A stretch of DNA of 14,097 nt from IMG/VR virus record IMGVR_UViG_2531839662_000021, positions 1 through 14,097 of that record; one strand, written 5' to 3'. The notes below the pieces were generated by a model. It ran no database searches and was not told the DNA's origin. It was given only the letters and a program-made list of their open reading frames with translations. The DNA comes from a virus (lineage: Duplodnaviria > Heunggongvirae > Uroviricota > Caudoviricetes). Positions 1 to 14,097 of this stretch are shown in pieces. Position 1 is the stretch's first letter; each line of letters starts with the position of its first letter. The position numbers were made by a program, and so were the translations under genes.

Positions 1-348
1 TACATCATGGCGACGGATTCGTGGGGGTACTCCCGCGACGTGCGCTGTGAAGTGCTGGCCGGAAAGGTGATCAAACGCCTGCTGTCGTCGGATGCCACCG
101 GAGGCATGGGGGCTGAACGCATGGCTGCTGATGTGCGGGCAGACAACATTTACTCCGCCAGCCTCGACGGGCTGGGTGTCACCATGTGGGCGGTGACGTG
201 GGAGCAGGAATTTCGGCTGGATGAAGAGATTGATCTCGCCGCGCTCCCGGACTTCCTGCGCCTCGGGGCAACGCTGCGTAGCGGTGAACACACTGAAATT
301 AACGACGTGATCCATGTACGGGGTGACGATGGAACAGAAACTGATTAA
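1..348 (+). CDS. 5'-truncated CDS, C-terminal part of a Mu gp37 (K)-like tail completion/terminator protein
   Basis: ORF is in frame from base 1 (no start inside the window) and stops at 346-348. Position immediately upstream of the small gp38-like ORF and the sheath gene matches Mu late-operon synteny. Function inferred from synteny only. Confidence 0.5.
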   Translation, partial: YIMATDSWGYSRDVRCEVLAGKVIKRLLSSDATGGMGAERMAADVRADNIYSASLDGLGVTMWAVTWEQEFRLDEEIDLAALPDFLRLGATLRSGEHTEINDVIHVRGDDGTETD

Positions 349-514
349 GCCAGCGCGGGAAAACGTCCGTGTCCGTAAACCGGATGGCGCGCATTTATCC
401 CCGGAAGGGGAACGTCTCGACGTCTGCGCTTACTGGCTGCGCCGTGAAGCCGAGGGAGATGTGGAAATAACCGCGCTTCCGAAAAATAGCAACAAAAACA
501 GAGGGAAAAAATAA
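329..514 (+). CDS. small conserved tail-region protein, Mu gp38-like
   Basis: 61-aa ORF (MEQKLIKPAREN...). ATG at 329 is preceded by a GGGGTGA Shine-Dalgarno-like motif; the ORF track's start at 314 has no good RBS. Its stop overlaps the sheath ATG (TAATG at 512-516). Small gene between K-like and L-like genes as in Mu. Confidence 0.5.
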   Translation: MEQKLIKPARENVRVRKPDGAHLSPEGERLDVCAYWLRREAEGDVEITALPKNSNKNRGKK

Positions 515-1990
515 TGTCGCTGGGTTCAATTCCTGATGATATCCGCGTCCCGCTTGTCTGGATCGATATCGACAATTCACAGGTGCTGGATGGTGCATCC
601 GCGCAAAGCCGAAAAATTCTGGTCATGGGCCATGCGGTATCGTCCGGCAGCGCAGACGCCCTGTCACTGACCCGCATCACCAGTGACAGCCAGGCAGACC
701 AGCTTTATGGCAAAGGGTCGATGCTGGCTGAAATGCTCAAAATGCTGCGTCGTGCCAACACGTACACGGAAACCTGGGCTATGCCGGTTGCCGCGCCTGA
801 AGGCGCTGCCGCAAAAGCCACGCTGACCGTGCTGGGTACAGCGACTGAAGCCGGAACGGTGGCACTGCTGATTAACGGTGTGTCCGTTCAGGTGAGCGTG
901 AGCGCCGGGGCTACGAAGGAAAACATTGCAAAAGCCATTGCTGATGCGGTGACGAAAAAGCCTGCCACGCAGGTGGCCGCTGCGGTGAAGGATGATGCCA
1001 CGGATACCGTGGAGCTGACCGTGAACTGGCACGGCGTCACCGGCAACGGTGCCGACGTTCGCCTGAACTACTACACCGGTGAAGCCTTCCCGGCTGGTGT
1101 GAAGGTGACCGCTACTGCGTTTACCGGCGGCACCGGGACACCGGAAATGGCGGATGCCGTTGCGGCCATCGGCCCGGAGTGGTTTACCGATATCATCGCC
1201 CCGTTCACCGACACGAAAAGCCTGAACACCCTGCGTGATGAACTGCTGAACCGCTGGGGGCCGCTCAAAATGATGGAGGCGCAGCTGTGGACGGCGTTTC
1301 GTGGCACGCACGGCGAGACAGGCACGTTTGGTGAAACCCGCAATGACTGGCTGATTAGCTGTATTGGCACCAACCTGTCACCGCACCCGGCGTGGATGTG
1401 GGCCGCGTCATACGGCGCAACGGCAGCGTATCACCTTTGCCATTGACCCGGCGCGTCCGCTTCAGACGCTGGTCCTGACCGGCATTCTGCCGCCTGCGCG
1501 TAATGTTCGCTGGGATATGCCGGAACGTAACCTGCTGCTGCATGACGGCATTGCCACACACATGGTGGACGCCGGGGATAACGTCTGCATCGAGCGTGAA
1601 ATCACCATGTACCGGGTTAATCAGTACGGTGATGCGGATGTGTCGTACCTTGATGTGCAGTCACCCGCCACGCTGGGCCGTATCCGTTACATCATCAAAA
1701 ATCGTTTCACGAACCGTTATCCGCGCCATAAGCTGGCGGACGATGACGTGCTGGACTCACTGGATGCCGGTCAGCCGGTGATGACGCCGAAGCTGTGCAC
1801 CGCAGAGCTGCTGGATATCTGCCAGACCGAACTTATTCCTGCGGGCCTTGTGGAGAACTTCAGCGATTACAAGGACACGCTTCAGGTGACACGCGACAGC
1901 AGCGATAAAAACCGTCTGAACTTTATCTGCCACCCGAATCTGGTGAACCAGCTGCGTGTGCTGGCAGGCCTGATTCAGTTCAAACTTTAA
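514..1990 (+). pseudogene. contractile tail sheath protein (Mu gpL-like), reading frame disrupted by an apparent +1 frameshift near 1420-1440
   Basis: ORF 514..1446 (310 aa, starts MSLGSIPDDIRVPLVWIDID, GAGGGA RBS upstream) continues as protein-like sequence in the next frame (ITFAIDPARPLQTLVLTG... to stop at 1988-1990). Combined span is 1477 nt, one base more than a multiple of three; an intact gene would be about 491 aa, the typical sheath size. The frame-2 ORF upstream of about 1425 is Arg-rich junk. Confidence 0.75.
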
Positions 1991-1999
1991 GGGGGCCGC

Positions 2000-2356
2000 A
2001 TGGCAAAAATTCTTGGCATGGCGACCATTCGCGTGAATGGCCGCGAAATTAAAACCGAGGGGAAATCCACGCTGAATCCGGGCGGCTTCAGTCGCACCCA
2101 GCATATGGGCGGCGGCAAGGTCTGGGGCATCTCCAGCAAGATGGCCTCGCCGTCCATCAAGGTGACCATTGCGGCGGCAGCGGATATGGACGTGATTGAA
2201 ATCAGCAGCTGGGAAGACGTCACGGTGATGTTCTACGGCGACAATGGCCTGAACTACATGATGACGGGTTCCGCCACGGATAACCCGGCGGAGCTGGACG
2301 AGGATTCCGGCACCATCAGTGCCAACTTTATCGGTGAAAAATGCGTGAAGGTGTGA
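2000..2356 (+). CDS. tail tube protein (Mu gpM-like)
   Basis: 118-aa ORF directly after the sheath gene with AAGGGGG RBS 6 nt upstream of ATG; size and position typical of myovirus tube proteins. Confidence 0.75.
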   Translation: MAKILGMATIRVNGREIKTEGKSTLNPGGFSRTQHMGGGKVWGISSKMASPSIKVTIAAAADMDVIEISSWEDVTVMFYGDNGLNYMMTGSATDNPAELDEDSGTISANFIGEKCVKV

Positions 2357-2357
2357 C

Positions 2358-2753
2358 ATGGCTGAAATGACATTTGAACTGAAACACGGGCTTCTGACCG
2401 GCAAAGGCACGGCAGATGAAACCCTGCATAAAACCGTGAAACTGCGCGAACTGACCGCCAGCGACGTGATTGATGCACAACTGGCCGCAGAACGCGTCGT
2501 CATGGGCGGGAACGGAAAGGCGGTGGCCTACTGCTCGGAAGTGCTGATGGGGCTGGAGATGATGCGCCGTCAGGTTGCGGCCATCGGCAGCATTCCCGGC
2601 CCGCTGGACATGAAACAGCTGCGAATGCTCCACCCGGCAGACCTTGAGCTTATCAGCACGAAAGCCGCTGCGCTGGATGACATGCTTGAGGAGGTGGCAA
2701 CGCGGGGGCGACCTGATGCCGCTGGCGGCGGCACTGATGAACCTGCTGGTTAA
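2358..2753 (+). CDS. tail assembly chaperone (Mu gp41-like), short in-frame product
   Basis: 131-aa ORF between tube and tape measure genes, the conserved position for tail assembly chaperones; ATG lies 1 nt after the tube stop. Confidence 0.7.
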   Translation: MAEMTFELKHGLLTGKGTADETLHKTVKLRELTASDVIDAQLAAERVVMGGNGKAVAYCSEVLMGLEMMRRQVAAIGSIPGPLDMKQLRMLHPADLELISTKAAALDDMLEEVATRGRPDAAGGGTDEPAG

Positions 2754-2853
2754 CCTGTCCCAGCGATTCAGCATTCAGTACCTGGAACAGCTGCCCCTGC
2801 GGCAGCTGTTCCGCCTGATAAAGCAACTGGAGAAACAGCATGGCAACAGGTAA
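2358..2853 (+). CDS. tail assembly chaperone frameshift fusion product (G-GT-like), putative -2/+1 shift at G-run 2704-2708
   Basis: A second frame is open from 2644 to the stop at 2854-2856 and overlaps the 3' end of the chaperone ORF; CGGGGGCGA at 2703-2711 is the candidate slip site. The extension ends 14 nt inside the tape measure gene start. Fusion would be about 165 aa. Confidence 0.45.
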
Positions 2854-4696
2854 CCGTCTCAGCACGGAAATCATGATCAACCTTGCCGGGAACCTGACCG
2901 CCAAAGCCCGGCAGTACGGCGCAAATATGTCGCAGTTCGCCCGGAACCATCAGAAGGCCATGCGCCTTGTCAAAGCCACAACGGAGGCCGCAGGACGCGG
3001 CCTTGATACGCTGGGCAACCGCTACACGGCAATGATAGCCGGGCTTGGCAGTAGCCTAACCATCAAACAGGTTGCCGATTTTGATGCGCAGATGCGCCGG
3101 ATGGGTACGGATGCCCAGTTAACCACTGAACAGGTAAAGACGCTTCACGACAAAATCAGGGATGTATCGAACCAGAAAGATATTCGTATTGATGCCTCTG
3201 CGCTTGGTCAGGGGGCCAGCGAACTTCTGGGGAAAACCGGTGATTATCAGTATGTGGTGGACAACCTCCGCAACATGGGGTTGATGATGCAGGCGTTCGG
3301 TGTTGACGGACAGGTTGCAGCCGGGCTGATGGCGCAGTTCTGGGAAAAAAACGTCCGGGGCGCTGATGCGGTCAGTAACATGATGGACAGGCTGTATTCG
3401 CAGTTCGCAGTGGGGTCTGTCAGCGTTGCCGATGTTGCCCGCGCAGCTCCGAAACTGTTTTCCATCATTCAGGATCAGGGACCGGAAGCCATTGCCCAGA
3501 TGGGGGCATTTGCTCAGGTGTTCGCCAAAAACAAAGGCAGCATTGATGAGACGGTAACCAGTATTCAGGCCATGTATGCCTCCCTGTCGGACAAAAAGAA
3601 CATCGAGTTCCTGAAAAAAAACGGCGTTGATGTTTTTGTCAAAGGCACAAAAGACATCAAAAAGCCCTATGAACTGATGATGGAAATCCTTAAACGGGCC
3701 AAATACGACCCGCTGAAACTTCAGGATGTGTTTGATCAGACCGGGATGCAGGGGATTAAGGCGCTGCTTAACCCTGAAAACCGGCAACTGATGGAACAAA
3801 TGATTTACGGCACGATTGATCTGGGTTCCACGCAAAAGGCCGCACAGACCAATGCCGAAGGCTTTAATGCTGCAATGCAATCACTGAATAACGAATGGCA
3901 ACGTTTTGCTGAAGGGCAACTGGCAAAGCCCGTTCAGGACCTGGCGGATGCGCTCAACAGCGTGGACCAGGATACCGTCCAGAACTGGTTGCAGGTGGGT
4001 AAATATATAGCGATTGCGCTGGGTGGCATTATCGCCATCAGAAAGACGTATCAGTTCGGTAAAACCATCCACGACATCATGAATCCCAAAGGGAAAGGCA
4101 AAGGGATTCCCGGTGGCATTACGGATGTTTTCGGCTCCGGTGTGATGCCGGTTTATGTGGTTAATATGGGCAGTGGCGGGATGAATGGTAATACCGGCGG
4201 TCTGCCGGATACACCGGATTCATCGCGCAATCCCCGTAACCCACGCAATCCTCGGGGTCCGGGTAACCGTGGAGGAAAGGCAGGTAAAGGCGCTGGCATC
4301 ATTACCGGTGCTCTGGAGTTTTACGATTTTCTGACCACGCAATACGCCCTGCCGGGTGAGGTTGACAGCCTTACAAAATCCGTTGCCGGTGATGCCAGCG
4401 CCAGCCCGTGGGAGCGCGAGTTCGCGCAACAGAGTCAGGACAATCAGAAAGCGCTCGAGTCCGTCTGGCGTAAGGTAACGGACTGGTTCAACTCGCTGGG
4501 TGACAAGAACATTGCCGACCCGCGACCGTGGGCAGGTATGCAACCCACACAGAATTATCCTTTCCTTCCGCAGCAATTGCAGGGGGAGATCCGTGTGGTG
4601 GTGGAAGGTGACGCCCGCGTGAAAAGCGTCAGAGTGGATCAACCCGGCGTCAGACTCAGTGCGCAGGCTGGCGTCACCAGCGTGGAGCAAGGGTAA
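2840..4696 (+). CDS. tail tape measure protein (Mu gpN-like)
   Basis: 618-aa ORF following the chaperone pair, GGAG RBS upstream; hydrophobic segment (WLQVGKYIAIALGGIIAI) and Gly-rich low-complexity C-terminal region typical of tape measure proteins. Confidence 0.8.
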   Translation: MATGNRLSTEIMINLAGNLTAKARQYGANMSQFARNHQKAMRLVKATTEAAGRGLDTLGNRYTAMIAGLGSSLTIKQVADFDAQMRRMGTDAQLTTEQVKTLHDKIRDVSNQKDIRIDASALGQGASELLGKTGDYQYVVDNLRNMGLMMQAFGVDGQVAAGLMAQFWEKNVRGADAVSNMMDRLYSQFAVGSVSVADVARAAPKLFSIIQDQGPEAIAQMGAFAQVFAKNKGSIDETVTSIQAMYASLSDKKNIEFLKKNGVDVFVKGTKDIKKPYELMMEILKRAKYDPLKLQDVFDQTGMQGIKALLNPENRQLMEQMIYGTIDLGSTQKAAQTNAEGFNAAMQSLNNEWQRFAEGQLAKPVQDLADALNSVDQDTVQNWLQVGKYIAIALGGIIAIRKTYQFGKTIHDIMNPKGKGKGIPGGITDVFGSGVMPVYVVNMGSGGMNGNTGGLPDTPDSSRNPRNPRNPRGPGNRGGKAGKGAGIITGALEFYDFLTTQYALPGEVDSLTKSVAGDASASPWEREFAQQSQDNQKALESVWRKVTDWFNSLGDKNIADPRPWAGMQPTQNYPFLPQQLQGEIRVVVEGDARVKSVRVDQPGVRLSAQAGVTSVEQG

Positions 4697-5970
4697 TGAC
4701 AACAGGCAAAGGCAAATGGGACGGACTGCGCGACGCCTCGTTTCGCGGTGTCCCCTTCTTTCTGGTGGATACGGAAGGCACCGGTGGCCGCAGGGCTATT
4801 CCCCGCGCGTATCCCCGGCGTGAAACCGCCTGGACGGATGATAACGGGGCCGTTCCCGGTCAACAGCAGATTAACGCAAAGCTGCCAGGTAAAAACTTCC
4901 AGGATGATTTAAACGCCCTTTTAGACGCGCTCAATACCCCCGGCCCCGGCGAGCTTATCCACCCGTGGTTCGGGATACAGACCGTACAGGTTGGCAAGGT
5001 CACCCATCGCCTCAGCACGGAGGAAGACGGCATTGCGTATGTCACTTTTGAAGTGTTTGAGGCAGGCGAGCGCCTGTTCCCGTCTGCGGCGGATAACACG
5101 CAGCAGGAAGTACTGACGGGTATTGATGCGGTAAAAGCGGCCATTGACGATGGCGACTGGTTCGGCGCACTCGACGGGCTGGGTGAGATGGCCGACAGCT
5201 TTCTGGCTGATATGGAAAACCTTGTGGCTAACCTGCCCACGTTACCGGCAGCACTGAATCAGTGGATGGACAGGCTGAACCATTTTAAGGAGATGGCCGG
5301 AACCATCATTGCCACACCGGGGCGTCTGGTCAGTGAGCTGTCCTCGTTCATCGACGGCGTGGTTGATCTGGTGACGGAACCACCCGAAGCACTGGCGGTT
5401 TACACGACATTACGCAACCAGTGGGCCGGAGAACGCGCCCGACAGGTTGCCACCGGCGCACTGCCGGAAGATATCACCGTGAAGCCAGGCAGCGTGGCAG
5501 ACGGCGAAATTGGCTTTGCTATCGGGCTGTCACCGGATTATCAGCCGGTATCTGTCAGTCTGCAGAAGAACATTGACGACTTCCGCCAGGTGGTTGTGCT
5601 GGAAACCCTGCTGGGACAGGCAAATGCCGTGGCCTCGATGACGTTCGATACCAGTGATGCGGCCTTATCTGCCGGTGACACGCTGGCGGCTGAACTGCAT
5701 GAGCAGGCGGTGGCAGCGGTGGAAAATAACCAGCGGGCATTGTGGCGAACGCTGCGCGATTTACGGCAGGCCGTGATTACGGATGCCCGCGAGCGTGCCG
5801 CCCGTCTGCCGGAAACCCGGCAGGTGACGCTGACCACAACCACATCTGCCGCATTGCTGGCATGGCGCGAGCATGGGGATACAAGCCGACGGGATGAAAT
5901 CGTGCAGCGTAACCGCCTGCGCCATCCGTCATTCATCCTGCCAACGCAACCAGTGGAGATTACCGACTGA
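4696..5970 (+). CDS. Mu gp43 (P)-like 'DNA circulation' baseplate/tail protein
   Basis: 424-aa ORF; N-terminus (KWDGLRDASFRGVPFFLVDTEG) resembles the DNA-circulation N-terminal family found after the tape measure gene in Mu-like phages; start overlaps the upstream stop (TAATG). Confidence 0.7.
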   Translation: MTTGKGKWDGLRDASFRGVPFFLVDTEGTGGRRAIPRAYPRRETAWTDDNGAVPGQQQINAKLPGKNFQDDLNALLDALNTPGPGELIHPWFGIQTVQVGKVTHRLSTEEDGIAYVTFEVFEAGERLFPSAADNTQQEVLTGIDAVKAAIDDGDWFGALDGLGEMADSFLADMENLVANLPTLPAALNQWMDRLNHFKEMAGTIIATPGRLVSELSSFIDGVVDLVTEPPEALAVYTTLRNQWAGERARQVATGALPEDITVKPGSVADGEIGFAIGLSPDYQPVSVSLQKNIDDFRQVVVLETLLGQANAVASMTFDTSDAALSAGDTLAAELHEQAVAAVENNQRALWRTLRDLRQAVITDARERAARLPETRQVTLTTTTSAALLAWREHGDTSRRDEIVQRNRLRHPSFILPTQPVEITD

Positions 5971-7040
5971 TGGAATCCGTGATTCTTACCGTTGACGGCA
6001 AATTGTGGGAAGGCTGGACGGAAATGTCCGTCAGCCGTTCCCTGAAGGCGATTGCCGGTGAGTTTGATCTCAGTGTGACAACCCGCTGGTCAGCGGCGGC
6101 ACCGCGCGTGATACGTGAGGGGCAACCCTGCACGGTCAGGCTGGGTGCGGATACCGTGCTGACAGGGTATATCGATGATTTTATCCCCAGCTATGACGCA
6201 GATAACGTGGAGATTCGCGTCATGGGGCGCGACAAAACCGGCGACCTGGTGGACTGCTCTGTGGTGCATTCATCCGGGAAATGGAAAGGCGTGCGGCTGG
6301 AACAGGTAGCGGCTGATGTCTGCCGCCCGTTCGGGATAGCCGTCATCACGGAAACCCCGACCGGGGAGGCGTTTGCGTCCGTTGTTCTGGAACAGGGTGA
6401 AACGGGCTTTGAACTGCTCGACCGGCTGGCAAAACAGCGCGGCGTTCTGCTGACGTCTGACGGCGCAGGTAACCTGATTATCACCCGCGCCTCTTCCGTT
6501 CGCGCGGGTGTGTCACTGGTGCTGGGGAAAAATATCCTCGCCGCCCGTGGGCGCTTCAGCTGGCGGGAGCGTAACAGCCAGTACATCATCAAGGGCACCA
6601 CCAGTGCCGGTGGCAAACTGTGGGACAGCCAGCCTGCCTCGATGGTGGGTGGTCGCCAGTACATCACCGAAGACCCGGAAATTAACCGTTACCGCCCGCG
6701 CATTCTGGTCAATGAAGACAGCCTGACCGTGGGCGGGGCCAGCATTCGCGGGGAATGGTACAAAGCCCGGATGCTGGGGGAATCCCGCACGACGGAAATC
6801 ACGGTGGCAGGCTGGCGCGAACAGGGCGACAGCGGCCCGCTGTGGCAGACCAATCGCCTTGTCGATATCGACGACAGCATTCAGAACCTGAAAACCACCT
6901 GGCTGATATCCGGGGTGACCTGGACGGATGGCGCACAGGGGCGGATGACGGTTCTGGCGCTGGTTCCGCCTGAATCACTGGATATGCCGGAAATGAAAGC
7001 GAAGACGAAGAAAACAAAGGCGGTGGCCACATGGGATTAA
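5970..7040 (+). CDS. baseplate hub protein (Mu gp44/Q-like, P2 gpD-like)
   Basis: 356-aa ORF in the conserved position; start overlaps the upstream stop (TGATG). Confidence 0.7.
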   Translation: MESVILTVDGKLWEGWTEMSVSRSLKAIAGEFDLSVTTRWSAAAPRVIREGQPCTVRLGADTVLTGYIDDFIPSYDADNVEIRVMGRDKTGDLVDCSVVHSSGKWKGVRLEQVAADVCRPFGIAVITETPTGEAFASVVLEQGETGFELLDRLAKQRGVLLTSDGAGNLIITRASSVRAGVSLVLGKNILAARGRFSWRERNSQYIIKGTTSAGGKLWDSQPASMVGGRQYITEDPEINRYRPRILVNEDSLTVGGASIRGEWYKARMLGESRTTEITVAGWREQGDSGPLWQTNRLVDIDDSIQNLKTTWLISGVTWTDGAQGRMTVLALVPPESLDMPEMKAKTKKTKAVATWD

Positions 7041-7567
7041 ACGCAATTGCCCGCCGTCTGCGGCTGCTGGTTGACCGTGCCGTTGTGCGCATGGTGTCTG
7101 ACAGTCTGGAGCGGCAGAACCTGCAAATCCAGACGCTGGCTGATGCCACCGACGACGACGTGGAACGCTTCCAGAACTACGGGTTTACTTCCGTTCCGCC
7201 GGAAGGTTCTGAAGCCATCGTGCTGGCCGTGGGCGGACGGCGTGACGGGCTGGTTGCCATCGCGGTGGAGGACAAGCGATGTCGCCCGAAAGGCCTGTCC
7301 CCCGGTGATGTCCGGCTGTATCACCAGGACGGTAAATCGCATATCACGTTAAAGAAAGGCGGAATTATTGAAATCACAGGAGAACAATTAAACGTTTCAG
7401 GGAAAACGGTAAATCTCACCGCCGACGAATTGCTGAATATTATCGGTAAACAAATGAAATTCGTCGGTCCCTGTGAATTTACTGCAGATGCCACAATCAA
7501 CGGTAAATCTTTCATCAAACACATTCATAAGGACGGCGACAATGAGAAGACATCACCGCCCATATGA
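7031..7567 (+). CDS. baseplate central spike / assembly protein V (Mu gp45-like)
   Basis: 178-aa ORF overlapping the hub gene by 10 nt; size and position match gpV-like spike proteins. Confidence 0.7.
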   Translation: MGLNAIARRLRLLVDRAVVRMVSDSLERQNLQIQTLADATDDDVERFQNYGFTSVPPEGSEAIVLAVGGRRDGLVAIAVEDKRCRPKGLSPGDVRLYHQDGKSHITLKKGGIIEITGEQLNVSGKTVNLTADELLNIIGKQMKFVGPCEFTADATINGKSFIKHIHKDGDNEKTSPPI

Positions 7568-8016
7568 CGACCGGAATCCGCTGGAATAATACTCTCTCAC
7601 GGGGTGACATCACCGTCACCCATAACGGCCTCTCACTGGATGAGGGGCTGGTCACTCAGGTTCTTATCTGCCTTTTCACTGATGCCCGTGCTGATGACGA
7701 TGATGTCATTCCAGATGGTTCCGGCGACCCGCGCGGCTGGCCGGGCGACACGTACAGCGATTTTTCGTGGGGTTCCCGCCTGTGGCTGCTTGAGCGCGAA
7801 AAACTGACGGAAGATGTCCGCCTGCGCGTGGAGGATTACGCGCGACTGTCCATGCAACCGCTGCTGCGGGCCGGTTACGCCCGTAACGCCACCGTCACGG
7901 CCAGAATCATCGTCCCTGACCGTATTGCCTTTCAGGTGGTGTTAACCCGCCCGGACAAAACCACGCTCACAATCGAAATCACCCGCCGATGGGAGGCCAC
8001 CATTAATGCCGTATGA
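7564..8016 (+). CDS. baseplate wedge protein, Mu gp46 (W)-like / T4 gp25-like
   Basis: 150-aa ORF with ATGA start/stop overlap with the upstream gene; Asp-rich motif (DARADDDDVIPDGSGDPRGW) characteristic of the GP46 family. Confidence 0.7.
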   Translation: MTTGIRWNNTLSRGDITVTHNGLSLDEGLVTQVLICLFTDARADDDDVIPDGSGDPRGWPGDTYSDFSWGSRLWLLEREKLTEDVRLRVEDYARLSMQPLLRAGYARNATVTARIIVPDRIAFQVVLTRPDKTTLTIEITRRWEATINAV

Positions 8017-9082
8017 AATCCCCTCGCTGGGCAAACTGATTGCCGACGGCGAAAAAGATATTGCGTATGAACTCGGTCTGCAAAAGCTGCCGCCTGTCAG
8101 TGTTGAGCAGGCGCTGAACGTGTCGTTCAGCAGTCAGGTCCGGGATTTATACGACCATCAGAGCTGGATTAAGGACCAGATAATCCCGTCCACCGCATCT
8201 GATGATGAAACCATTATCAAAACAGCAACGTATGAAGGGGTTATCCGCAAGCAGGCAACCTTTGCCAGCGGGCCGGTGACCTTCACCAGTCAGTCCCCCA
8301 TTCCGGCAGAAACCCGGATGCAGTCCGACACGAATCAGGTGTATCAGGTACTCACATCCGGCGAGGTACAGGACGGCGAGGTCACCGTCATCGTGCAGGC
8401 TGAAGAAGCCGGTGTGGCGGGCAATCTTGCTGCCGGTGCCGTGCTCACTCTGTTGTCCCCGCTACCCGGAACGGGCAGCACCGGCGCGGTGACTGAAAGT
8501 GGCATCACCGGTGGCGCAGACATCGAATCCATCGCAGAGCTGCTGGACCGTCTGCTGTATGTGCGCCGCAATCCCCCGGTGGGCGGTGCACTGCATGATT
8601 ACGTCATCTGGGCGCGTGAAGTGCCGGGTGTCAGCCGCGCGTGGGCATGGGATGCGTGGCACGGCCCCGGCACGGTCGGGCTGGCATGGCTTTATGATGA
8701 CCGTGAAGACATTATCCCCACACGGGACGACCTGAAGACAATGGAGCAGTATCTGTTCTGCCACAAACACCCTGCCACCGGCGTGATGGTGGGCAAACCG
8801 GGCGGCATCGAGGTCTGGCCGGTGCAGGTCAGGCTGAAGAAGCTCGACCTGTCCATCCGTCTGACACCGGACAGCCAGGCGAACAGGAACGCCGTCCGGG
8901 CAAACCTGACCGCATTGCAGAAAACGCTGGCCCCCGGTCAGATGCTGCCGGTGTCCTCGCTGCGCACGGCCATCGGTATGACGTCCGGTATCACGGATTA
9001 CTTCCTCAACATCGGGGAGGACACCACCAGTGATGTGGATGAGCTTATCACCATCGGGGAGGTGACATGGCTCACAGCGTGA
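8006..9082 (+). CDS. baseplate J-like protein (Mu gp47-like)
   Basis: 358-aa ORF overlapping the upstream gene by 11 nt; size and synteny match baseplate J family proteins. Confidence 0.7.
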   Translation: MPYEIPSLGKLIADGEKDIAYELGLQKLPPVSVEQALNVSFSSQVRDLYDHQSWIKDQIIPSTASDDETIIKTATYEGVIRKQATFASGPVTFTSQSPIPAETRMQSDTNQVYQVLTSGEVQDGEVTVIVQAEEAGVAGNLAAGAVLTLLSPLPGTGSTGAVTESGITGGADIESIAELLDRLLYVRRNPPVGGALHDYVIWAREVPGVSRAWAWDAWHGPGTVGLAWLYDDREDIIPTRDDLKTMEQYLFCHKHPATGVMVGKPGGIEVWPVQVRLKKLDLSIRLTPDSQANRNAVRANLTALQKTLAPGQMLPVSSLRTAIGMTSGITDYFLNIGEDTTSDVDELITIGEVTWLTA

Positions 9083-9651
9083 CGGAATGGCTGACCGCAC
9101 TGCAACAGGTCATGCCACGGGGTAAGGCATGGCCGCGTGATAACGACGCGGATTTAAACCGTTTTTTAAGGGCGCTTGCAGAGCGTTTAACCCGCGTTGA
9201 ATACGACGCCTCGCGTCTGCATGTGGAGATGCGACCGGAAACCACGCTCCAGTTGCTGCCGGAGTGGGAGCAATATCTGGCGCTGCCGGAATGCGGAATT
9301 GCCGCCACCACAACGGAAGCCCGCCGCCGGGCCGTGGTGGAGAAATACCGCCGCAAAGGCGGGCTGGCCACCTGGCAGATTGAAGCCGCTGCGGCGGCGC
9401 TGGGATTCACTATTAAGGTGACGGCCGTTCTGCCGCACCACTGCCTGCGTGACTGCATGTACCCGCTACATCCGGCGCGGTATCGCTGGCTGCTGAAAGT
9501 GGAAGTCCCGGACAAAGATGCCGGGCGGTTTACCTGTATTGATGACGTCATGACGCCATTAATCAGCGAACGGACCCGCGAGCTGGAATGCCTGCTGAAG
9601 CATTACCGGCTGGCGGGCACGGAATATGAATATTATTACACCGGAGAATAA
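9067..9651 (+). CDS. tail/baseplate protein Mu gp48-like (P2 gpI-like)
   Basis: 194-aa ORF overlapping the upstream gene by 16 nt, immediately preceding the tail fibre gene as in Mu. Confidence 0.65.
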   Translation: MAHSVTEWLTALQQVMPRGKAWPRDNDADLNRFLRALAERLTRVEYDASRLHVEMRPETTLQLLPEWEQYLALPECGIAATTTEARRRAVVEKYRRKGGLATWQIEAAAAALGFTIKVTAVLPHHCLRDCMYPLHPARYRWLLKVEVPDKDAGRFTCIDDVMTPLISERTRELECLLKHYRLAGTEYEYYYTGE

Positions 9652-9654
9652 TTT

Positions 9655-10542
9655 ATGTTTCATGTGGATAATCCGACGGGTGTGCCAGTGATGCCACCTG
9701 TCGCGGCTGAATTAAGCAAAACAACGCTTTATTTCACCGAAGGCGGGAACGGTATTCCGCCCACTTATCCGGGGCCGGACTGGTTTAATATTATTCAGTC
9801 TGAATTACTGAAAATTCTCGAAGAAGCCGGAATAACACCGGATAAAGCAGATACCGGTCAGATAATGGCAGCGCTGAAAAAACTGTTTATTACGAACAGT
9901 GGTTCAGCTGGTGCCATTGCCGGATTAACCGGTCAGAATAATACGTTCCCGTACTTTACGGGCGAAGACACAATGGCATTAACGCCGCTCAGTGCTTTTG
10001 TGCGCGGTATTCTCGGGAAAAACACAGCCGGTGAAATTATCGACGCGCTTTTATTACGTGACACGGTAAATAAAGCTAATAGTGCTGTACCGAATACCCG
10101 CAGGGTCAACGGCATGGCTCTGTCTTCGGATATCACCATCAGCAACATCAGCGGCAACGCCGGAACGGCAACCCGACTTCAGACGGCCCGCAGGATTAAC
10201 AATGTGCTGTTTGATGGCAGCCGCGATATCACGATTTCTGCGGGAATGTCACAAACTGAAGGTGACAACCGTTACCAGCAAAAAAACACGGCGTCAAAAG
10301 CCGGTAATGGCTGGTTTAAGGACACGTCCACCGGGGTGATTATTCAGTGGGGGTATCTCGGCAATGCCAGTGCCGGGCTGACGTTTCCGATATCATTTCC
10401 GTCAGCATGTACCAGCATCACTATTACCAACGCATACACCCGTGCTGATTACTCTATTTCCCTGAAATCGTTATCAGCAGCAGGTGCGACATTCAACAGC
10501 GAGAATAACGGCGTTATGTACTGGACAGCGATAGGGTATTAA
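9655..10542 (+). CDS. tail fibre protein (Mu S-like), module 1
   Basis: 295-aa ORF with GGAGAA RBS; directly follows the baseplate genes and is followed by an overlapping tail fibre assembly gene; more AT-rich than the upstream structural genes. Confidence 0.75.
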   Translation: MFHVDNPTGVPVMPPVAAELSKTTLYFTEGGNGIPPTYPGPDWFNIIQSELLKILEEAGITPDKADTGQIMAALKKLFITNSGSAGAIAGLTGQNNTFPYFTGEDTMALTPLSAFVRGILGKNTAGEIIDALLLRDTVNKANSAVPNTRRVNGMALSSDITISNISGNAGTATRLQTARRINNVLFDGSRDITISAGMSQTEGDNRYQQKNTASKAGNGWFKDTSTGVIIQWGYLGNASAGLTFPISFPSACTSITITNAYTRADYSISLKSLSAAGATFNSENNGVMYWTAIGY

Positions 10543-10982
10543 TGATGACTATTTATTTCAGCCCATCAACAAACGGTTTTTATCATTCTGGCCTTCAGGG
10601 TGATTATGAAAATGCGGGAACGTGGCCGAATGATTTACAGGAAATCACGGATGAAGAATATCAGAGACTGTTACAGGGCCAGACTGACGGTTTTATTATT
10701 GTATCTGGCGAAAACGGATATCCGGTATTAAAAGAACCCGTAATTAACTGGCAGCAGAAAGCGGAAACGCAACGCCAGCACCTGCTGGCTGAAGCAAGGG
10801 AAATCACCTCCGACTGGAAAACCGAGCTGGAGCTGGGCACCATCAGCGACGATGATAAAGCCCGTCTTACGCAGTGGATGGCATATATCAAAGCGGTAAA
10901 GGCACTGGATTTAAGCACCGTTACTGACGAAGACTCCTTTTATTCCATCAACTGGCCGGAGCGTCCCGATGCCGCAGCTTAA
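10542..10982 (+). CDS. tail fibre assembly chaperone (Mu U-like / Tfa), module 1
   Basis: 146-aa ORF with TAATG overlap to the fibre gene; size and position typical of Tfa/U chaperones. Confidence 0.7.
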   Translation: MMTIYFSPSTNGFYHSGLQGDYENAGTWPNDLQEITDEEYQRLLQGQTDGFIIVSGENGYPVLKEPVINWQQKAETQRQHLLAEAREITSDWKTELELGTISDDDKARLTQWMAYIKAVKALDLSTVTDEDSFYSINWPERPDAAA

Positions 10983-12576
10983 AGGTGTGATTAAAACGCC
11001 CACGGGAGAACCGCTGGGCGGCGCAACCATTACATTGACCTCCCTGCACAACCGCGCAGGGATTCTGAAAAGTGTTTTCAGCCATGTCACCACACAGAAC
11101 GGGGAATATGACTTCCCCGTTCTGCCGGGTGTGTACAGCGTTCGCCTGACACAAAGCACACAGCGCCTTTCAGAAATCGGTGTCATCCGCGTTTATGAAG
11201 ATTCAGCGGACGGTTCGTTGAATGATTTTCTGGGTGCAACCGATATTGACCTGCGCCCGGAAGCCCTGAAGAAATTCGAAGAGCTGGCGCAACAGGCGCA
11301 GCAAAGCGCAGAAGCCGCAGCGGAAAGCGAGCGACAGGCCGGGCAACATGTCGCTGATGCGCAGAAGATAAAGAAAGACTGTCAGACGCTGGCGGATAAC
11401 GTACAGCAGAACGCAGAAGCCGTAGCGGCCAGCAAACAGCACGTTGAACAGCTGGCCTCAGAAGTTGAGCTGAACGCCGGGCAGGTGCAGCAGGGCGTGC
11501 AGAATGTTACTGATGCGGTAAAAAAGGCGCAGCAGGCAGCAAAGGATTCTGCTGACAGTGCCACAGATTCGAAAAACAGTGCTGACAATGCGGCACTGAG
11601 CGAACAGAACGCACAAAAACACGCGCAGAAAGCTGAACAACACGAGCAGCAGACTAAACAATATGCGCAGGATGCAGCGACCGCCGCAGAATCAGCAGAG
11701 AACGCCAAAGGCGAAATTGACGAAATTCTGGAAGGTGGCTATCTCAAGATAAAAAACAACTTTCAGGAAATTGTTGATGCTGGCCCGTCAGCACTGGCTC
11801 AGGCCCAATGGAATTTACAGATTTCCGGGGTGAAAAATAAACAGGTAATTGCCACCCCTTATACATGGCCATCCAGAACTGAGTATGAACAAAGGGTGCA
11901 TCTGCCACTCGCCGGGGCTTACGGATTTGGCTACACATTTGAAGACCAAAGCCAGGGGCGAATAAATTTTAATGAGGGCTATACGGCGTCGTGGTGGTCA
12001 CAGTGGGCGAAACCTGGTCGTTATTACGTCAGCGCCAGTGATAAAGAATACCTCGCACCTGAAGGAGAAAGGTGGGGGATTGTTGATTTGCTGTGGCTTA
12101 ATGGCAGCGGATATAACGATGCTTCGAAGGTTCTGAAGATACTGGCTTTTTACGACTCAGACGGGCACTTACACATAGGCAAGCGCGTTGGTCAGAGCGA
12201 CTGGTCAATAAGCTGGCGCAAGCTGGCATCGCTCTCTGATGTCAGGGCCATGCTGTATTCATATATTTATAATAATTACAACAGAGAATGGCGAGACCCG
12301 GAACTGGGAGGTTTAATTCTGGCGTCATACCAGGGAACCGCAGACGGCGACACAAATATAAAAGTATCCCGTGGTCAGACTTATCCCGGCTCGCGACTCG
12401 CTCCTGTGGCGATAGAATGCCAGTTCACCCCATCCGGCACGTATGCTGCAACACCGCGATTCTACATTACCGGCTGCAAGAGCAAATCACTCCCCGGAAC
12501 TTATATTTCATTGTCTGGCGCGCCAACAACATACAGCGACCAGGCATTTGTTGCGCTATTCATGAGGATTGTATGA
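10969..12576 (+). CDS. second tail fibre protein with distinct N-terminal domain, long Ala/Gln-rich coiled-coil stalk and C-terminal receptor-binding region
   Basis: 535-aa ORF; N-terminus (MPQLKGVIKTPTGEPLGGATITLTS...) resembles prophage tail-fibre N-terminal domains; residues about 100-250 are strongly Ala/Gln/Glu/Lys-rich; followed by its own Tfa gene. Confidence 0.75.
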   Translation: MPQLKGVIKTPTGEPLGGATITLTSLHNRAGILKSVFSHVTTQNGEYDFPVLPGVYSVRLTQSTQRLSEIGVIRVYEDSADGSLNDFLGATDIDLRPEALKKFEELAQQAQQSAEAAAESERQAGQHVADAQKIKKDCQTLADNVQQNAEAVAASKQHVEQLASEVELNAGQVQQGVQNVTDAVKKAQQAAKDSADSATDSKNSADNAALSEQNAQKHAQKAEQHEQQTKQYAQDAATAAESAENAKGEIDEILEGGYLKIKNNFQEIVDAGPSALAQAQWNLQISGVKNKQVIATPYTWPSRTEYEQRVHLPLAGAYGFGYTFEDQSQGRINFNEGYTASWWSQWAKPGRYYVSASDKEYLAPEGERWGIVDLLWLNGSGYNDASKVLKILAFYDSDGHLHIGKRVGQSDWSISWRKLASLSDVRAMLYSYIYNNYNREWRDPELGGLILASYQGTADGDTNIKVSRGQTYPGSRLAPVAIECQFTPSGTYAATPRFYITGCKSKSLPGTYISLSGAPTTYSDQAFVALFMRIV

Positions 12577-13142
12577 TGCAGATTAAAGAAATCACCAGCC
12601 CCCGTTATACCGAATCCGGTGCGATTGACTGCGACGTTCTGTTTGAGGAAATGGAAGCCCCTGTTCCCTACACTGCCACGCCGGACGATACAGCGAAAAC
12701 CGGTCAGCAAATCTGGCAGGAACTGCAAAGCGGAAAATGGGGTGAAATAACCCCGTTTGCCGTCACGCCGGAACTTATCGCAGCGGCGAAGGATGCCAAA
12801 AAACGGGAGATTGAGGCATGGCGCACAGAACAGGAGGCGCAGCCATTCACGTTCGAATGGAACGGTCGTACCTGGAATGCTGGTCCCGATTCGATGGCTC
12901 GCATTGCGCCCGTGGCAATGGCCGCAAAAGTGGCAGGTGCACGGGCAACGCTGGGGTGGGGGGATGCAGCAAACAGCCTTGTCACCATGACAATGGCGCA
13001 GCTTCAGGAGCTGGCAGCAACAATGGCGCAGGCGCAAACCGAGCGCAATACTGTGATTTATCGTCGTCAGCGTGAGATGAAAGAGCAGCTTTCCCTGTTG
13101 ACCACACTGAACGAAATAAGAGCATTCACACCCGGCGATTAA
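12573..13142 (+). CDS. tail fibre assembly chaperone (Tfa), module 2
   Basis: 189-aa ORF starting at ATGATG with GAGG RBS and ATGA overlap with the fibre stop. The longer ORF from 12288 in the track is a junk-like upstream extension. Confidence 0.7.
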   Translation: MMQIKEITSPRYTESGAIDCDVLFEEMEAPVPYTATPDDTAKTGQQIWQELQSGKWGEITPFAVTPELIAAAKDAKKREIEAWRTEQEAQPFTFEWNGRTWNAGPDSMARIAPVAMAAKVAGARATLGWGDAANSLVTMTMAQLQELAATMAQAQTERNTVIYRRQREMKEQLSLLTTLNEIRAFTPGD

Positions 13143-13265
13143 ATAATCATTTTGTATAGTTTATGACGATCGATAACATCATATCGATCGTCGGTTTGCA
13201 TCATATGTGATTAAATACCCCCAGCCCTCCGGGCGGTCATGTCTGGTTATTACACAGGGGGAATC
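13143..13265 (+). promoter_or_regulatory. mom-operon control region (Pmom-like): perfect 11-bp inverted repeat carrying two GATC Dam sites, G+C-rich element, com RBS
   Basis: GACGATCGATA (13165-13175) and TATCGATCGTC (13182-13192) are exact reverse complements separated by 6 bp; GATC at 13168-13171 and 13186-13189. Downstream ATACCCCCAGCCCTCCGGGCGG and AGGGGG RBS precede the com ATG. In Mu, Pmom is controlled by Dam methylation of upstream GATC sites and by the C activator. Confidence 0.55.
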
Positions 13266-13451
13266 ATGGACTCTGTTCGCTGTAAAAACTGCAATAAATT
13301 ACTGTTTAAAGGAGGTTTTAAGCATATAGAAATTAAATGCCCTCGCTGTAAACGTTACATTGTCATATCGAATGCCAAAGAGCATCCCACGGAGCTGTAT
13401 TGTGGGAAAAGAGAAGAAATCACGCATTCTGACAAAACCCTGCGTTATTGA
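13266..13451 (+). CDS. com: Com, zinc-finger translational activator of mom
   Basis: 61-aa product [33 protein letters not shown]...HSDKTLRY with CxxC...CxxC zinc-finger spacing, closely resembling Mu Com as I remember it; AGGGGG RBS 6 nt upstream of ATG; 3' end overlaps mom. Confidence 0.85.
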
Positions 13452-14097
13452 GTATGAAGGTCGTATTGTCGGCTATGGTTCAAAGGAGCTACGTGTTGAA
13501 ACCATATCCTGCTGGCTGGCCCGCACAATCATTCAGACAAAACACTATTCCCGCCGTTTTGTGAATAACTCCTACCTGCATCTTGGCGTATTCAGCGGAC
13601 GTGATCTGGTTGGCGTTCTTCAGTGGGGATATGCCCTTAACCCCAACTCAGGGCGTCGGGTCGTGCTTGAAACGGATAACCGGGGCTATATGGAACTGAA
13701 CCGCATGTGGCTACACGACGACATGCCCCGCAACTCTGAATCACGGGCTATCAGCTACGCGCTGAAAGTTATCAGGTTACTGTATCCGTCAGTTGAGTGG
13801 GTTCAGTCTTTTGCAGACGAACGCTGCGGACGTGCTGGCGTGGTATATCAGGCGTCGAATTTTGATTTTATTGGTAGCCATGAAAGCACGTTCTACGAGC
13901 TGGACGGCGAGTGGTATCACGAGATAGCGATGAACGCGATTAAGCGCGGAGGGCAACGAGGCGAGTATTTGCGGGCTAATAAGGAGCGGGCCGTGGTACA
14001 CAAATTTAATCAGTATCGCTACATCAGGTTCCTGAACAAGCGCGCAAAAAAGCGCCTAAACACCAAGCTATTCAGGATTCAGCCATACCCGAAGTGA
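13402..14097 (+). CDS. mom: Mom DNA modification protein (adenine modification, anti-restriction)
   Basis: ORF in a different frame overlapping the com 3' end and running to the window end (stop 14095-14097). GTG at 13402 is preceded by GGAG (13391-13394) and gives 231 aa, the length I recall for Mu Mom. An in-frame ATG at 13372 (241 aa) is an alternative start. Confidence 0.8.

Follow-up and report, generated by a model that had tools for sequence, protein, structure and literature searches.

A Mu-type com-mom operon in an Escherichia coli Mu-like prophage appears to keep two layers of Mu control and to diverge in the third

The stretch of DNA analyzed here, which we call the window, covers 14,097 nt, namely positions 1 to 14,097 of the viral record IMGVR_UViG_2531839662_000021. 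It closes with two overlapping genes, com (13266 to 13451) and mom (13372 to 14097), both of which proved to be real, as a preliminary description of the window had proposed. These genes and the control features described below all lie on the plus strand. The com gene starts with an ATG at 13266, five nt past a GGGGGAA Shine-Dalgarno sequence, and has its stop at 13451. The mom frame overlaps com in a different reading frame and encodes 241 aa from an ATG at 13372 or, in the same frame, 231 aa from the classical GUG at 13402. Its TGA stop codon (14095 to 14097) forms the final three bases of the window, so the window indeed ends exactly on mom. The same gene order and overlapping frames are found in phage Mu (Mup54/Mup55).

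The product of com is a 61-aa zinc-ribbon protein that, by its identity to Mu Com and its Pfam match, would act as the translational activator of mom. Protein alignment showed it to be 73% identical to Com of phage Mu, and it matched Pfam PF10122 (Zn_ribbon_Com) at 30.5 bits, with a cut-off of 22.9. All four zinc cysteines are kept, with Cys6, 9, 25, and 28 aligning to Cys6, 9, 26, and 29 of the Mu protein (PMC3299994). The dN/dS ratio of com relative to Mu was 0.17. A search of NCBIfam gave zero matches among the four proteins tested.

The mom gene encodes a predicted GNAT-type DNA-modifying enzyme, and its Pfam, Mu Mom, and structural matches point to a tRNA(Gly)-dependent N6-adenine carbamoylmethyl (acetamido) modification. 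Mom aligned with its Mu counterpart along 241 aa at 96% identity and with zero gaps, matched Pfam PF25680 at 254.3 bits (cut-off 27.1) across profile positions 1 to 202 of 202, and matched the solved Mom structure, PDB 8BV8, with E = 1.4e-155. In a 2026 study, Mu Mom was found to use Gly-tRNA(Gly) as the donor of a glycine that it attaches to the adenine N6 position of duplex DNA, after which an on-base rearrangement yields carbamoylmethyl (“acetamido”) adenine, which blocks restriction enzymes (PMC13219725). The same study found R111, S124, and R151 to be essential and H58, Y59, W48, Y159, and W181 to be important, along with a helix-turn-helix-like insertion; D149 is needed according to earlier work as that study cites it. 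In the ungapped alignment, W48, H58, Y59, R111, S124, D149, R151, Y159, and W181, among them catalytic and dimer residues, were all identical to Mu in the window protein, and the helix-turn-helix-like insertion (approximately residues 175 to 209) differed by only two substitutions, T186A and V198E. Relative to Mu, mom had a dS of 0.39 and a dN of 0.021, giving a dN/dS of 0.05; judging by these rates, the enzyme is under strong purifying selection. We see no reason in the alignment to expect its chemistry to depart from that of Mu. Going by the literature on the Mu orthologue, the product would be N6-carbamoylmethyl adenine, which would block many restriction enzymes, and because Mom is toxic, its expression would be gated.

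Taken with the PF10122, PF25680, and 8BV8 matches, these alignments point to a com-mom adenine-modification, anti-restriction module of a Mu-like prophage, in agreement with the preliminary description. That description had also judged the products recognizable yet not identical to those of Mu, and at 73% and 96% identity this holds, with low similarity ruled out. RefSeq likewise names the genes “protein mom” and “Com family,” and in one genome “tRNA(Gly)-dependent adenine aminoacyltransferase Mom.”

Upstream of com, tail-fibre and chaperone genes form two tandem pairs, and a DUF4376 gene ends the second pair. Neither gin nor an invertible G segment was found upstream of com in the window, whereas Mu carries the gin/G segment there. 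The late region of the window was 95 to 98% identical to prophages in UMNF18, STEC383, RM11911, and others. At one point we equated the window with the UMNF18 prophage adjoining dhaM, but although the last 1.5 kb were 100% identical, the rest was only 97 to 98% identical and the left part was different. The whole window was absent from every genome of the E. coli collection, and what we conclude on the early region and right end therefore rests on relatives. When the window was compared by megablast with deposited phage genomes, only com-mom found matches (Mu, D108, and SfMu, at ~89%), with the rest of the window unmatched.

The right end of the phage had been predicted to lie just beyond the window, and homology bears this out. 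In three relatives (UMNF18, STEC346, and LR882057; loci L002, L009, and L010), the Mu right end, ...TTTTCGTGCGCCGCTTCA, falls 115 to 116 bp after the mom stop codon, compared with ~115 bp in Mu itself. The terminal sequence at attR in these relatives, ...CGTGCGCCGCTTCA, matches the Mu terminus and is followed by a different host flank in each. Between mom and this end, all of which lies outside the window, the relatives carry a terminator-like hairpin followed by the terminal repeat region of Mu.

The first layer of control appears to act on translation. The Com protein of Mu binds a short hairpin with 5'-CC(N)2-3GAG-3' in its hexaloop; this hairpin sits just 5' of a translation-inhibition stem that holds the mom GUG start (PMC6483171). 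Predicted folding and alignment place the same two elements, a CC-N3-GAG hairpin and a GUG-containing inhibition stem, in the window. The putative Com-binding RNA hairpin, AUGC-CAAAGA-GCAU, spans 13372 to 13385, with CC-N3-GAG at 13375 to 13382. The putative translation-inhibition structure, which follows the model in PMC6483171, spans 13386 to 13406 with the stem CCCACGG / UUGUGGG. In the predicted fold, this stem sequesters the mom GUG (13402 to 13404), with the GGAG Shine-Dalgarno sequence (13391 to 13394) at its base and loop. Hairpin and stem together constitute the predicted minimum-free-energy fold, as they do in Mu and two other genera. On its own, the fold z-score was weak (-1.3), and an Rfam search returned nothing meaningful (best E-value 0.89). 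Across eight aligned lineages, however, the stem and motif of the Com hairpin, CCCAC, GGAG, and GUGGG were all invariant, with variation in the loop N3. This gate would thus be kept from Mu: the mom GUG and Shine-Dalgarno sequence would be held in the stem at 13386 to 13406 until Com, encoded upstream in the overlapping frame, binds the hairpin at 13372 to 13385 and opens it.

Upstream of com, the most prominent feature is TATAG followed by a perfect inverted repeat (13156 to 13192), for which a function as a Dam/OxyR-type control site is suggested by Mu (PMC3378877). The 11-nt arms, GACGATCGATA and TATCGATCGTC, occupy 13165 to 13175 and 13182 to 13192. They contain GATC sites at 13168 to 13171 and 13186 to 13189, which are 18 bp apart. 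By our own estimate, a perfect repeat of this kind would arise by chance in 200 nt about once in a thousand. Mu has CGATCGA-N10-TCGATCG with identical 18-bp GATC spacing and TATAG before it (Mu locus L001, 3381 to 3404). Digestion of the Mu mom promoter (Pmom) with the restriction enzyme PvuI, which recognizes CGATCG, is reported to give an 18-bp piece among its fragments (PMC3378877), and this agrees with the 18-bp spacing of the two CGATCG sites of Mu. The palindrome element also lies upstream of com in the Enterobacteriaceae genome MGYG110, in a Scandinavium metagenome-assembled genome (MAG), and in Apirhabdus. It was present in all 20 distinct variants of the window-type region and in every com-mom locus recovered from IMG/VR, and it is shared by Mu and at least four other lineages.

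The literature on Pmom, namely PMC3378877 and references therein, describes its GATC sites as the place where Dam methylation and OxyR compete. At the palindrome, a putative OxyR site, the window scored 12 of 20 against the OxyR consensus, equal to Mu in that register. In the register spanning the third GATC of Mu, the window scored 9 and Mu 13. Scores of 12 or more are scarce, as only 12 of the ~28,000 strand-positions scanned in the window reached that level, and the consensus peaks fall in the same two registers across nearly all lineages. On alignment, then, the GATC palindrome is the most conserved piece of the control region, a family signature and no departure from Mu. This second, epigenetic gate would be kept with two Dam sites instead of three. 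OxyR would bind the unmethylated palindrome at 13165 to 13192, and Dam methylation would exclude it, by homology with Mu.

Downstream of the palindrome, the resemblance to Mu largely ends, and blastn similarity to Mu, D108, SfMu, and their relatives begins only at 13276. The distance from the second GATC to the com ATG is 80 nt in the window and 91 nt in Mu, a difference of 11 bp. The third Dam site of Mu is lost, being replaced by CATC at 13199 to 13202, 13 nt past the second GATC. At this position, Mu, MGYG110, and Apirhabdus have GATC, whereas 20 of 20 window-type variants have CATC. The site at which Mu has its C-binding dyad, TTAT-N6-ATAA, is occupied by ATGT-GATTAA-ATAC with a C run behind it (13205 to 13222), which may be a degenerate activator box of the Mor/C family. 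Its offset of 29 nt from the second GATC is the same in Mu, MGYG110, and Scandinavium. Within it, the block T.TG.TTAAATA-CCC was invariant in the 20 window-type variants, with the preceding 3 to 4 nt varying, and some variants read TTAT-GATTAA-ATAC. An intermediate form is found in IMG/VR locus L159, which has TTAT-GGATTA-ATAACCCCAG, that is, the canonical TTAT-N6-ATAA followed by CCCCAG.

In Mu, the C dyad is centred ~43.5 bp upstream of the transcription start and is followed by a T6 spacer and a TAAGAT -10 element, and the window has none of these. The T6 run and the -10 are replaced by the GCCCTCCGGGC hairpin and GGTTATTAC. The first of these, a small G+C hairpin or dyad (GCCC-TCC-GGGC, 13224 to 13234), stands in for the spacer; among window-type variants its stem is kept and its loop varies (C, T, or A), and its sole terminator-like call was weak and on the minus strand. 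Beyond it, TGGTTATTAC (13244 to 13253), with GTTATT and TATTAC, is a candidate weak -10 region that would belong to an activator-dependent promoter. Its position fits the box-to-(-10) distance of Pmom (~32 nt), and a start there would leave a leader of only ~8 to 12 nt. Within this region, GGTTATTACAC is largely conserved, with one variant (L187) carrying a 2-nt deletion inside it. A scan for sigma-70 consensus elements found no promoter upstream of com or elsewhere in the window, but it found none at the real Pmom of Mu either and was uninformative. An extended -10, TGaTTAAAT, at 13208 to 13216 with a 43-nt leader starting at the G+C hairpin is also conceivable, although the key A is missing from the second position of TTAAAT and the activator box of Mu falls on the same site. 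Neither candidate -10 is a good one. A CCTCCGG motif common to the lys-type promoter and the mom upstream region was dropped because it occurs at chance level. Within a limited literature search, we found no report of the window-type promoter variant.

Which activator could serve such a promoter depends on the early region. This lies outside the window, and we read it in two complete relatives, UMNF18 and STEC346, whose shared late genes are 95 to 98% identical to those of the window. In both, a single Mor/C-family gene comes right behind the gp16 homologue and is followed by the endolysin gene, with or without a small secreted-protein moron between. The encoded protein is 59 to 63% identical to Mu Mor and 32% identical to C. 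In tblastn searches of these two complete relatives, we found no second Mor/C homologue and no Gin. The lys-type and I-type late promoters of the relatives carry an identical AGCCGGTAAATCCGGCTTTTTTT, which is very like the Mor site of the Mu middle promoter (Pm), and GCCGGTAAATCCGGC in the same promoters likewise resembles the Pm Mor site. Mu, by contrast, encodes C and has a Mor-to-C cascade with a middle operon; the lineage lacks both C and the middle operon. Its own cascade thus appears to have two tiers and no C, and if so, its mom promoter cannot be C-dependent. The third gate, that of the activator, would therefore be the diverged one: the C-dependent core promoter of Mu would have been replaced in a lineage that encodes one Mor-type activator and no C.

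Two routes of transcription would be open to com-mom. One is a late, weak promoter ~10 nt upstream of com, with the Mor-type protein acting at the degenerate box at 13205 to 13222. Mor-type activation of com-mom is speculative, however, because the clear Mor boxes of the lineage are absent there: AGCCGGTAAATCCGGCTTTTT was not found upstream of com with up to three mismatches allowed, and the looser palindrome GCCGG-N5-CCGGC gave intragenic sites only, such as 9919 to 9933. The other route is late read-through from the tail-fibre operon. In a stricter form of this reading, com-mom would have no promoter of its own and would simply close the late tail-fibre transcript as its final two cistrons, with the intergenic region retained only as an OxyR roadblock or a vestige. 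The pair is oriented like the tail genes, and 123 nt separate it from the DUF4376 gene upstream. A consensus scan predicted no plus-strand terminator in the window and none that was convincing between the tail genes and com, with terminator counts at background. The lack of a Mor-type box and of a sigma-70-like promoter upstream of com would also fit.

Still, three observations argue against the stricter form, in which com-mom has no promoter of its own and which we regard as somewhat unlikely. First, the intergenic block stays with com-mom in STEC719, where an SGNH hydrolase gene and a small ORF precede it instead. Second, T.TG.TTAAATA-CCC is invariant beside variable positions, exactly at the position of the C box in Mu. 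Third, within the lineage, intergenic identity (0.95 to 0.97) exceeds that at mom third-codon positions (0.88 to 0.93). Because the block travels with com-mom and is more conserved than mom third-codon positions, an activator-dependent promoter is slightly favored over read-through as the probable route. On the broader reading, we are evenly divided: mom transcription may have been rewired in this common E. coli Mu-like lineage, with the Com gate and the two-GATC Dam/OxyR switch kept and the C-dependent, T-run-distorted core of Pmom exchanged for either a compact promoter or read-through with the sole Mor-type activator, in a two-tier rather than a three-tier cascade.

The preliminary description had gone further and taken the GATC palindrome as the mark of a divergent regulatory architecture. 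Part of this stands, in that core promoter and activator box differ from those of Mu, one GATC, the third, has gone, and gin and C are missing, but the palindrome fails as a marker because Mu has the same one. A stronger version, in which the palindrome belongs to a non-Mu control architecture and mom is regulated here in a fundamentally different way, seems improbable to us. It could draw on the absence of blastn similarity to Mu upstream of 13276, the missing gin, and the replaced core promoter. However, the 18-bp GATC spacing and the flanking TATAG are also those of Mu, in keeping with the PvuI piece, and the Com target and inhibition stem are the same as well. Since the palindrome, the Com target, and the stem are shared, two of the three control layers of Mu would be conserved.

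The divergence of the control region extends into the 5' part of com. Identity to Mu at third-codon positions was 0.79 in the mom-only part and 0.46 in the com-only part, and synonymous sites in the 5' half of com were saturated relative to Mu. The promoter downstream of the palindrome was 0.44 identical to that of Mu, about as distant as those of other genera. On these comparisons, the module is a mosaic, in which mom and the right end are recent and Mu-like while the 5' part of com and the promoter represent an old, separate allele. The contrast at third positions (0.79 vs. 0.46) therefore places a recombination boundary around the com/mom overlap.

The window-type intergenic region is widely carried. 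It was present in 49 of 5,426 complete E. coli genomes, with as many as four copies in a single genome, and three plasmids carried it. An initial IMG/VR scan with the palindrome alone gave mostly chance matches among the matches listed, and it was superseded by a scan for the Com target, which recovered 43 com-mom loci. Of these, 17 were of the window type, 21 were of the Mu type, and five were others. The tail-sheath gene of the window carries a +1 frameshift, and the prophage may thus be defective. That the module itself is a decaying remnant, neither expressed nor useful, is nevertheless highly improbable: beside the sheath frameshift, a UMNF18 copy is deleted from the head gene into the sheath gene and several relatives have annotated frameshifts, but single-base frameshifts may be sequencing errors, both the com and mom ORFs are intact with a mom dN/dS of 0.05, every functional residue and RNA element is kept, and the presence of the module in many genomes, at varied insertion sites and in multiple copies, implies recent transposition.

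Related modules are known from other Mu-like prophages. E. coli examples such as Sp18 of O157 Sakai carry Mom and its regulators, whereas FluMu, Pnm1, and a prophage of H. influenzae aegyptius have com together with the non-specific m6A methyltransferases Hin1523, Nme1821, and Hia5, which are unrelated to Mom (PMC3299994). As in the latter group, the DNA-modification gene stands behind a Com-like zinc-finger gene where the Mu-like prophage has its right end, but the one in the window is a true Mom (PF25680).

Taken together, the alignments and predicted folds make it very probable that an E. coli Mu-like transposable prophage carries, at its right end and at the close of the window, a genuine and apparently functional com-mom operon of the Mu type, a mosaic in which the translational and two-GATC gates are kept and the activator gate has diverged. 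The system is a known one, its regulatory variant is modest, and the genes themselves add nothing new. Mom chemistry, Mom structure, and the Com RNA target have all been published, and automated annotation already names both genes. Calling the module unusual was thus an overstatement, given that the chemistry is solved (PMC13219725), RefSeq annotates the genes, and the promoter variant occurs in dozens of E. coli prophages.

The value of the locus is modest and lies instead in comparison. For annotation, a GATC palindrome upstream of com can be read as a family signature. The two halves of the operon, enzymatic and regulatory, appear to have had separate evolutionary histories. The Com hairpin, the inhibition stem, and the two-GATC palindrome do not change from lineage to lineage, whereas the activator box, the spacer, and the third GATC can be replaced. 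For Mu specialists, this amounts to a natural experiment on which of the mom safety layers are indispensable. If the proposed rewiring is true, it would show which layers of the over-regulated control of mom are essential and which are interchangeable.

Relative to Mu, the invertible G segment and gin are replaced in the window by two tandem tail-fibre/assembly pairs (9655-13142), and a tblastn search for a Gin homologue found none. The first pair comprises a gp53-like fibre (9655-10542) and an assembly protein (10542-10982); in the second, a fibre of 535 aa (10969-12576) that carries a prophage tail-fibre N-terminal domain and a long stretch rich in Ala and Gln precedes a DUF4376 protein (12576-13142). 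Within the first tail-fibre gene lies a palindrome, GCCGGATTAACCGGT (9919-9933), similar to GCCGGTAAATCCGGC, the Mor-type late-promoter box of this prophage lineage. The resemblance may mark an internal late promoter or be fortuitous; the counterpart of this palindrome in the STEC346 prophage falls in an unannotated gap.

The window's tail-sheath gene (514-1990) is present as two overlapping open reading frames (514-1446 and 1364-1990), with a frameshift near 1436 where one extra T splits the gene (TTT in the window vs. TT in two relatives). Either the prophage is defective and the gene a pseudogene, or the extra base is a sequencing error. The UMNF18 genome holds several copies or fragments of this prophage family, with up to eight matching places, and in one copy a deletion has left the major-head gene fused to what remains of the sheath gene, its 3′ part (joint at 4722-4746 of the UMNF18 locus, L002; NZ_AGTD01000001.1, about 1478970-1478994). 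In STEC346, the Mor-type activator gene is separated from the late lys-type promoter by an insertion that encodes a 165-aa protein with a signal-peptide-like N-terminus (11933-12430 of the STEC346 locus, L015). This insertion was found in that one relative and is missing from the UMNF18 copy, and the gene looks like a moron.

Upstream of com, two copies of the 9-mer GATTAAATA lie on either side of the GATC palindrome at a spacing of 72 nt. The first copy (13137-13145) overlaps the DUF4376 stop codon, and the second (13209-13217) coincides with the putative activator box; the duplication could be due to chance. In Apirhabdus apintestini (CP138906.1), the region upstream of mom is Mu-like throughout: it carries three GATC sites, TTAT-N6-GTAA and, as its −10 element, TAGAAT. 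Because the Mom homologue there (4001-4582 of the Apirhabdus locus, L005) matches residues 1-194 only, even though the contig extends beyond, this mom may be truncated.

Divergence of the window's own operon from Mu shifts sharply near the com/mom overlap (13266-13451 against 13452-14097), with third-position identity of 0.46 in the com-only portion vs. 0.79 in the mom-only portion. So abrupt a change indicates a recombination junction near the overlap, and hence different histories for the regulatory and enzymatic halves of com-mom.
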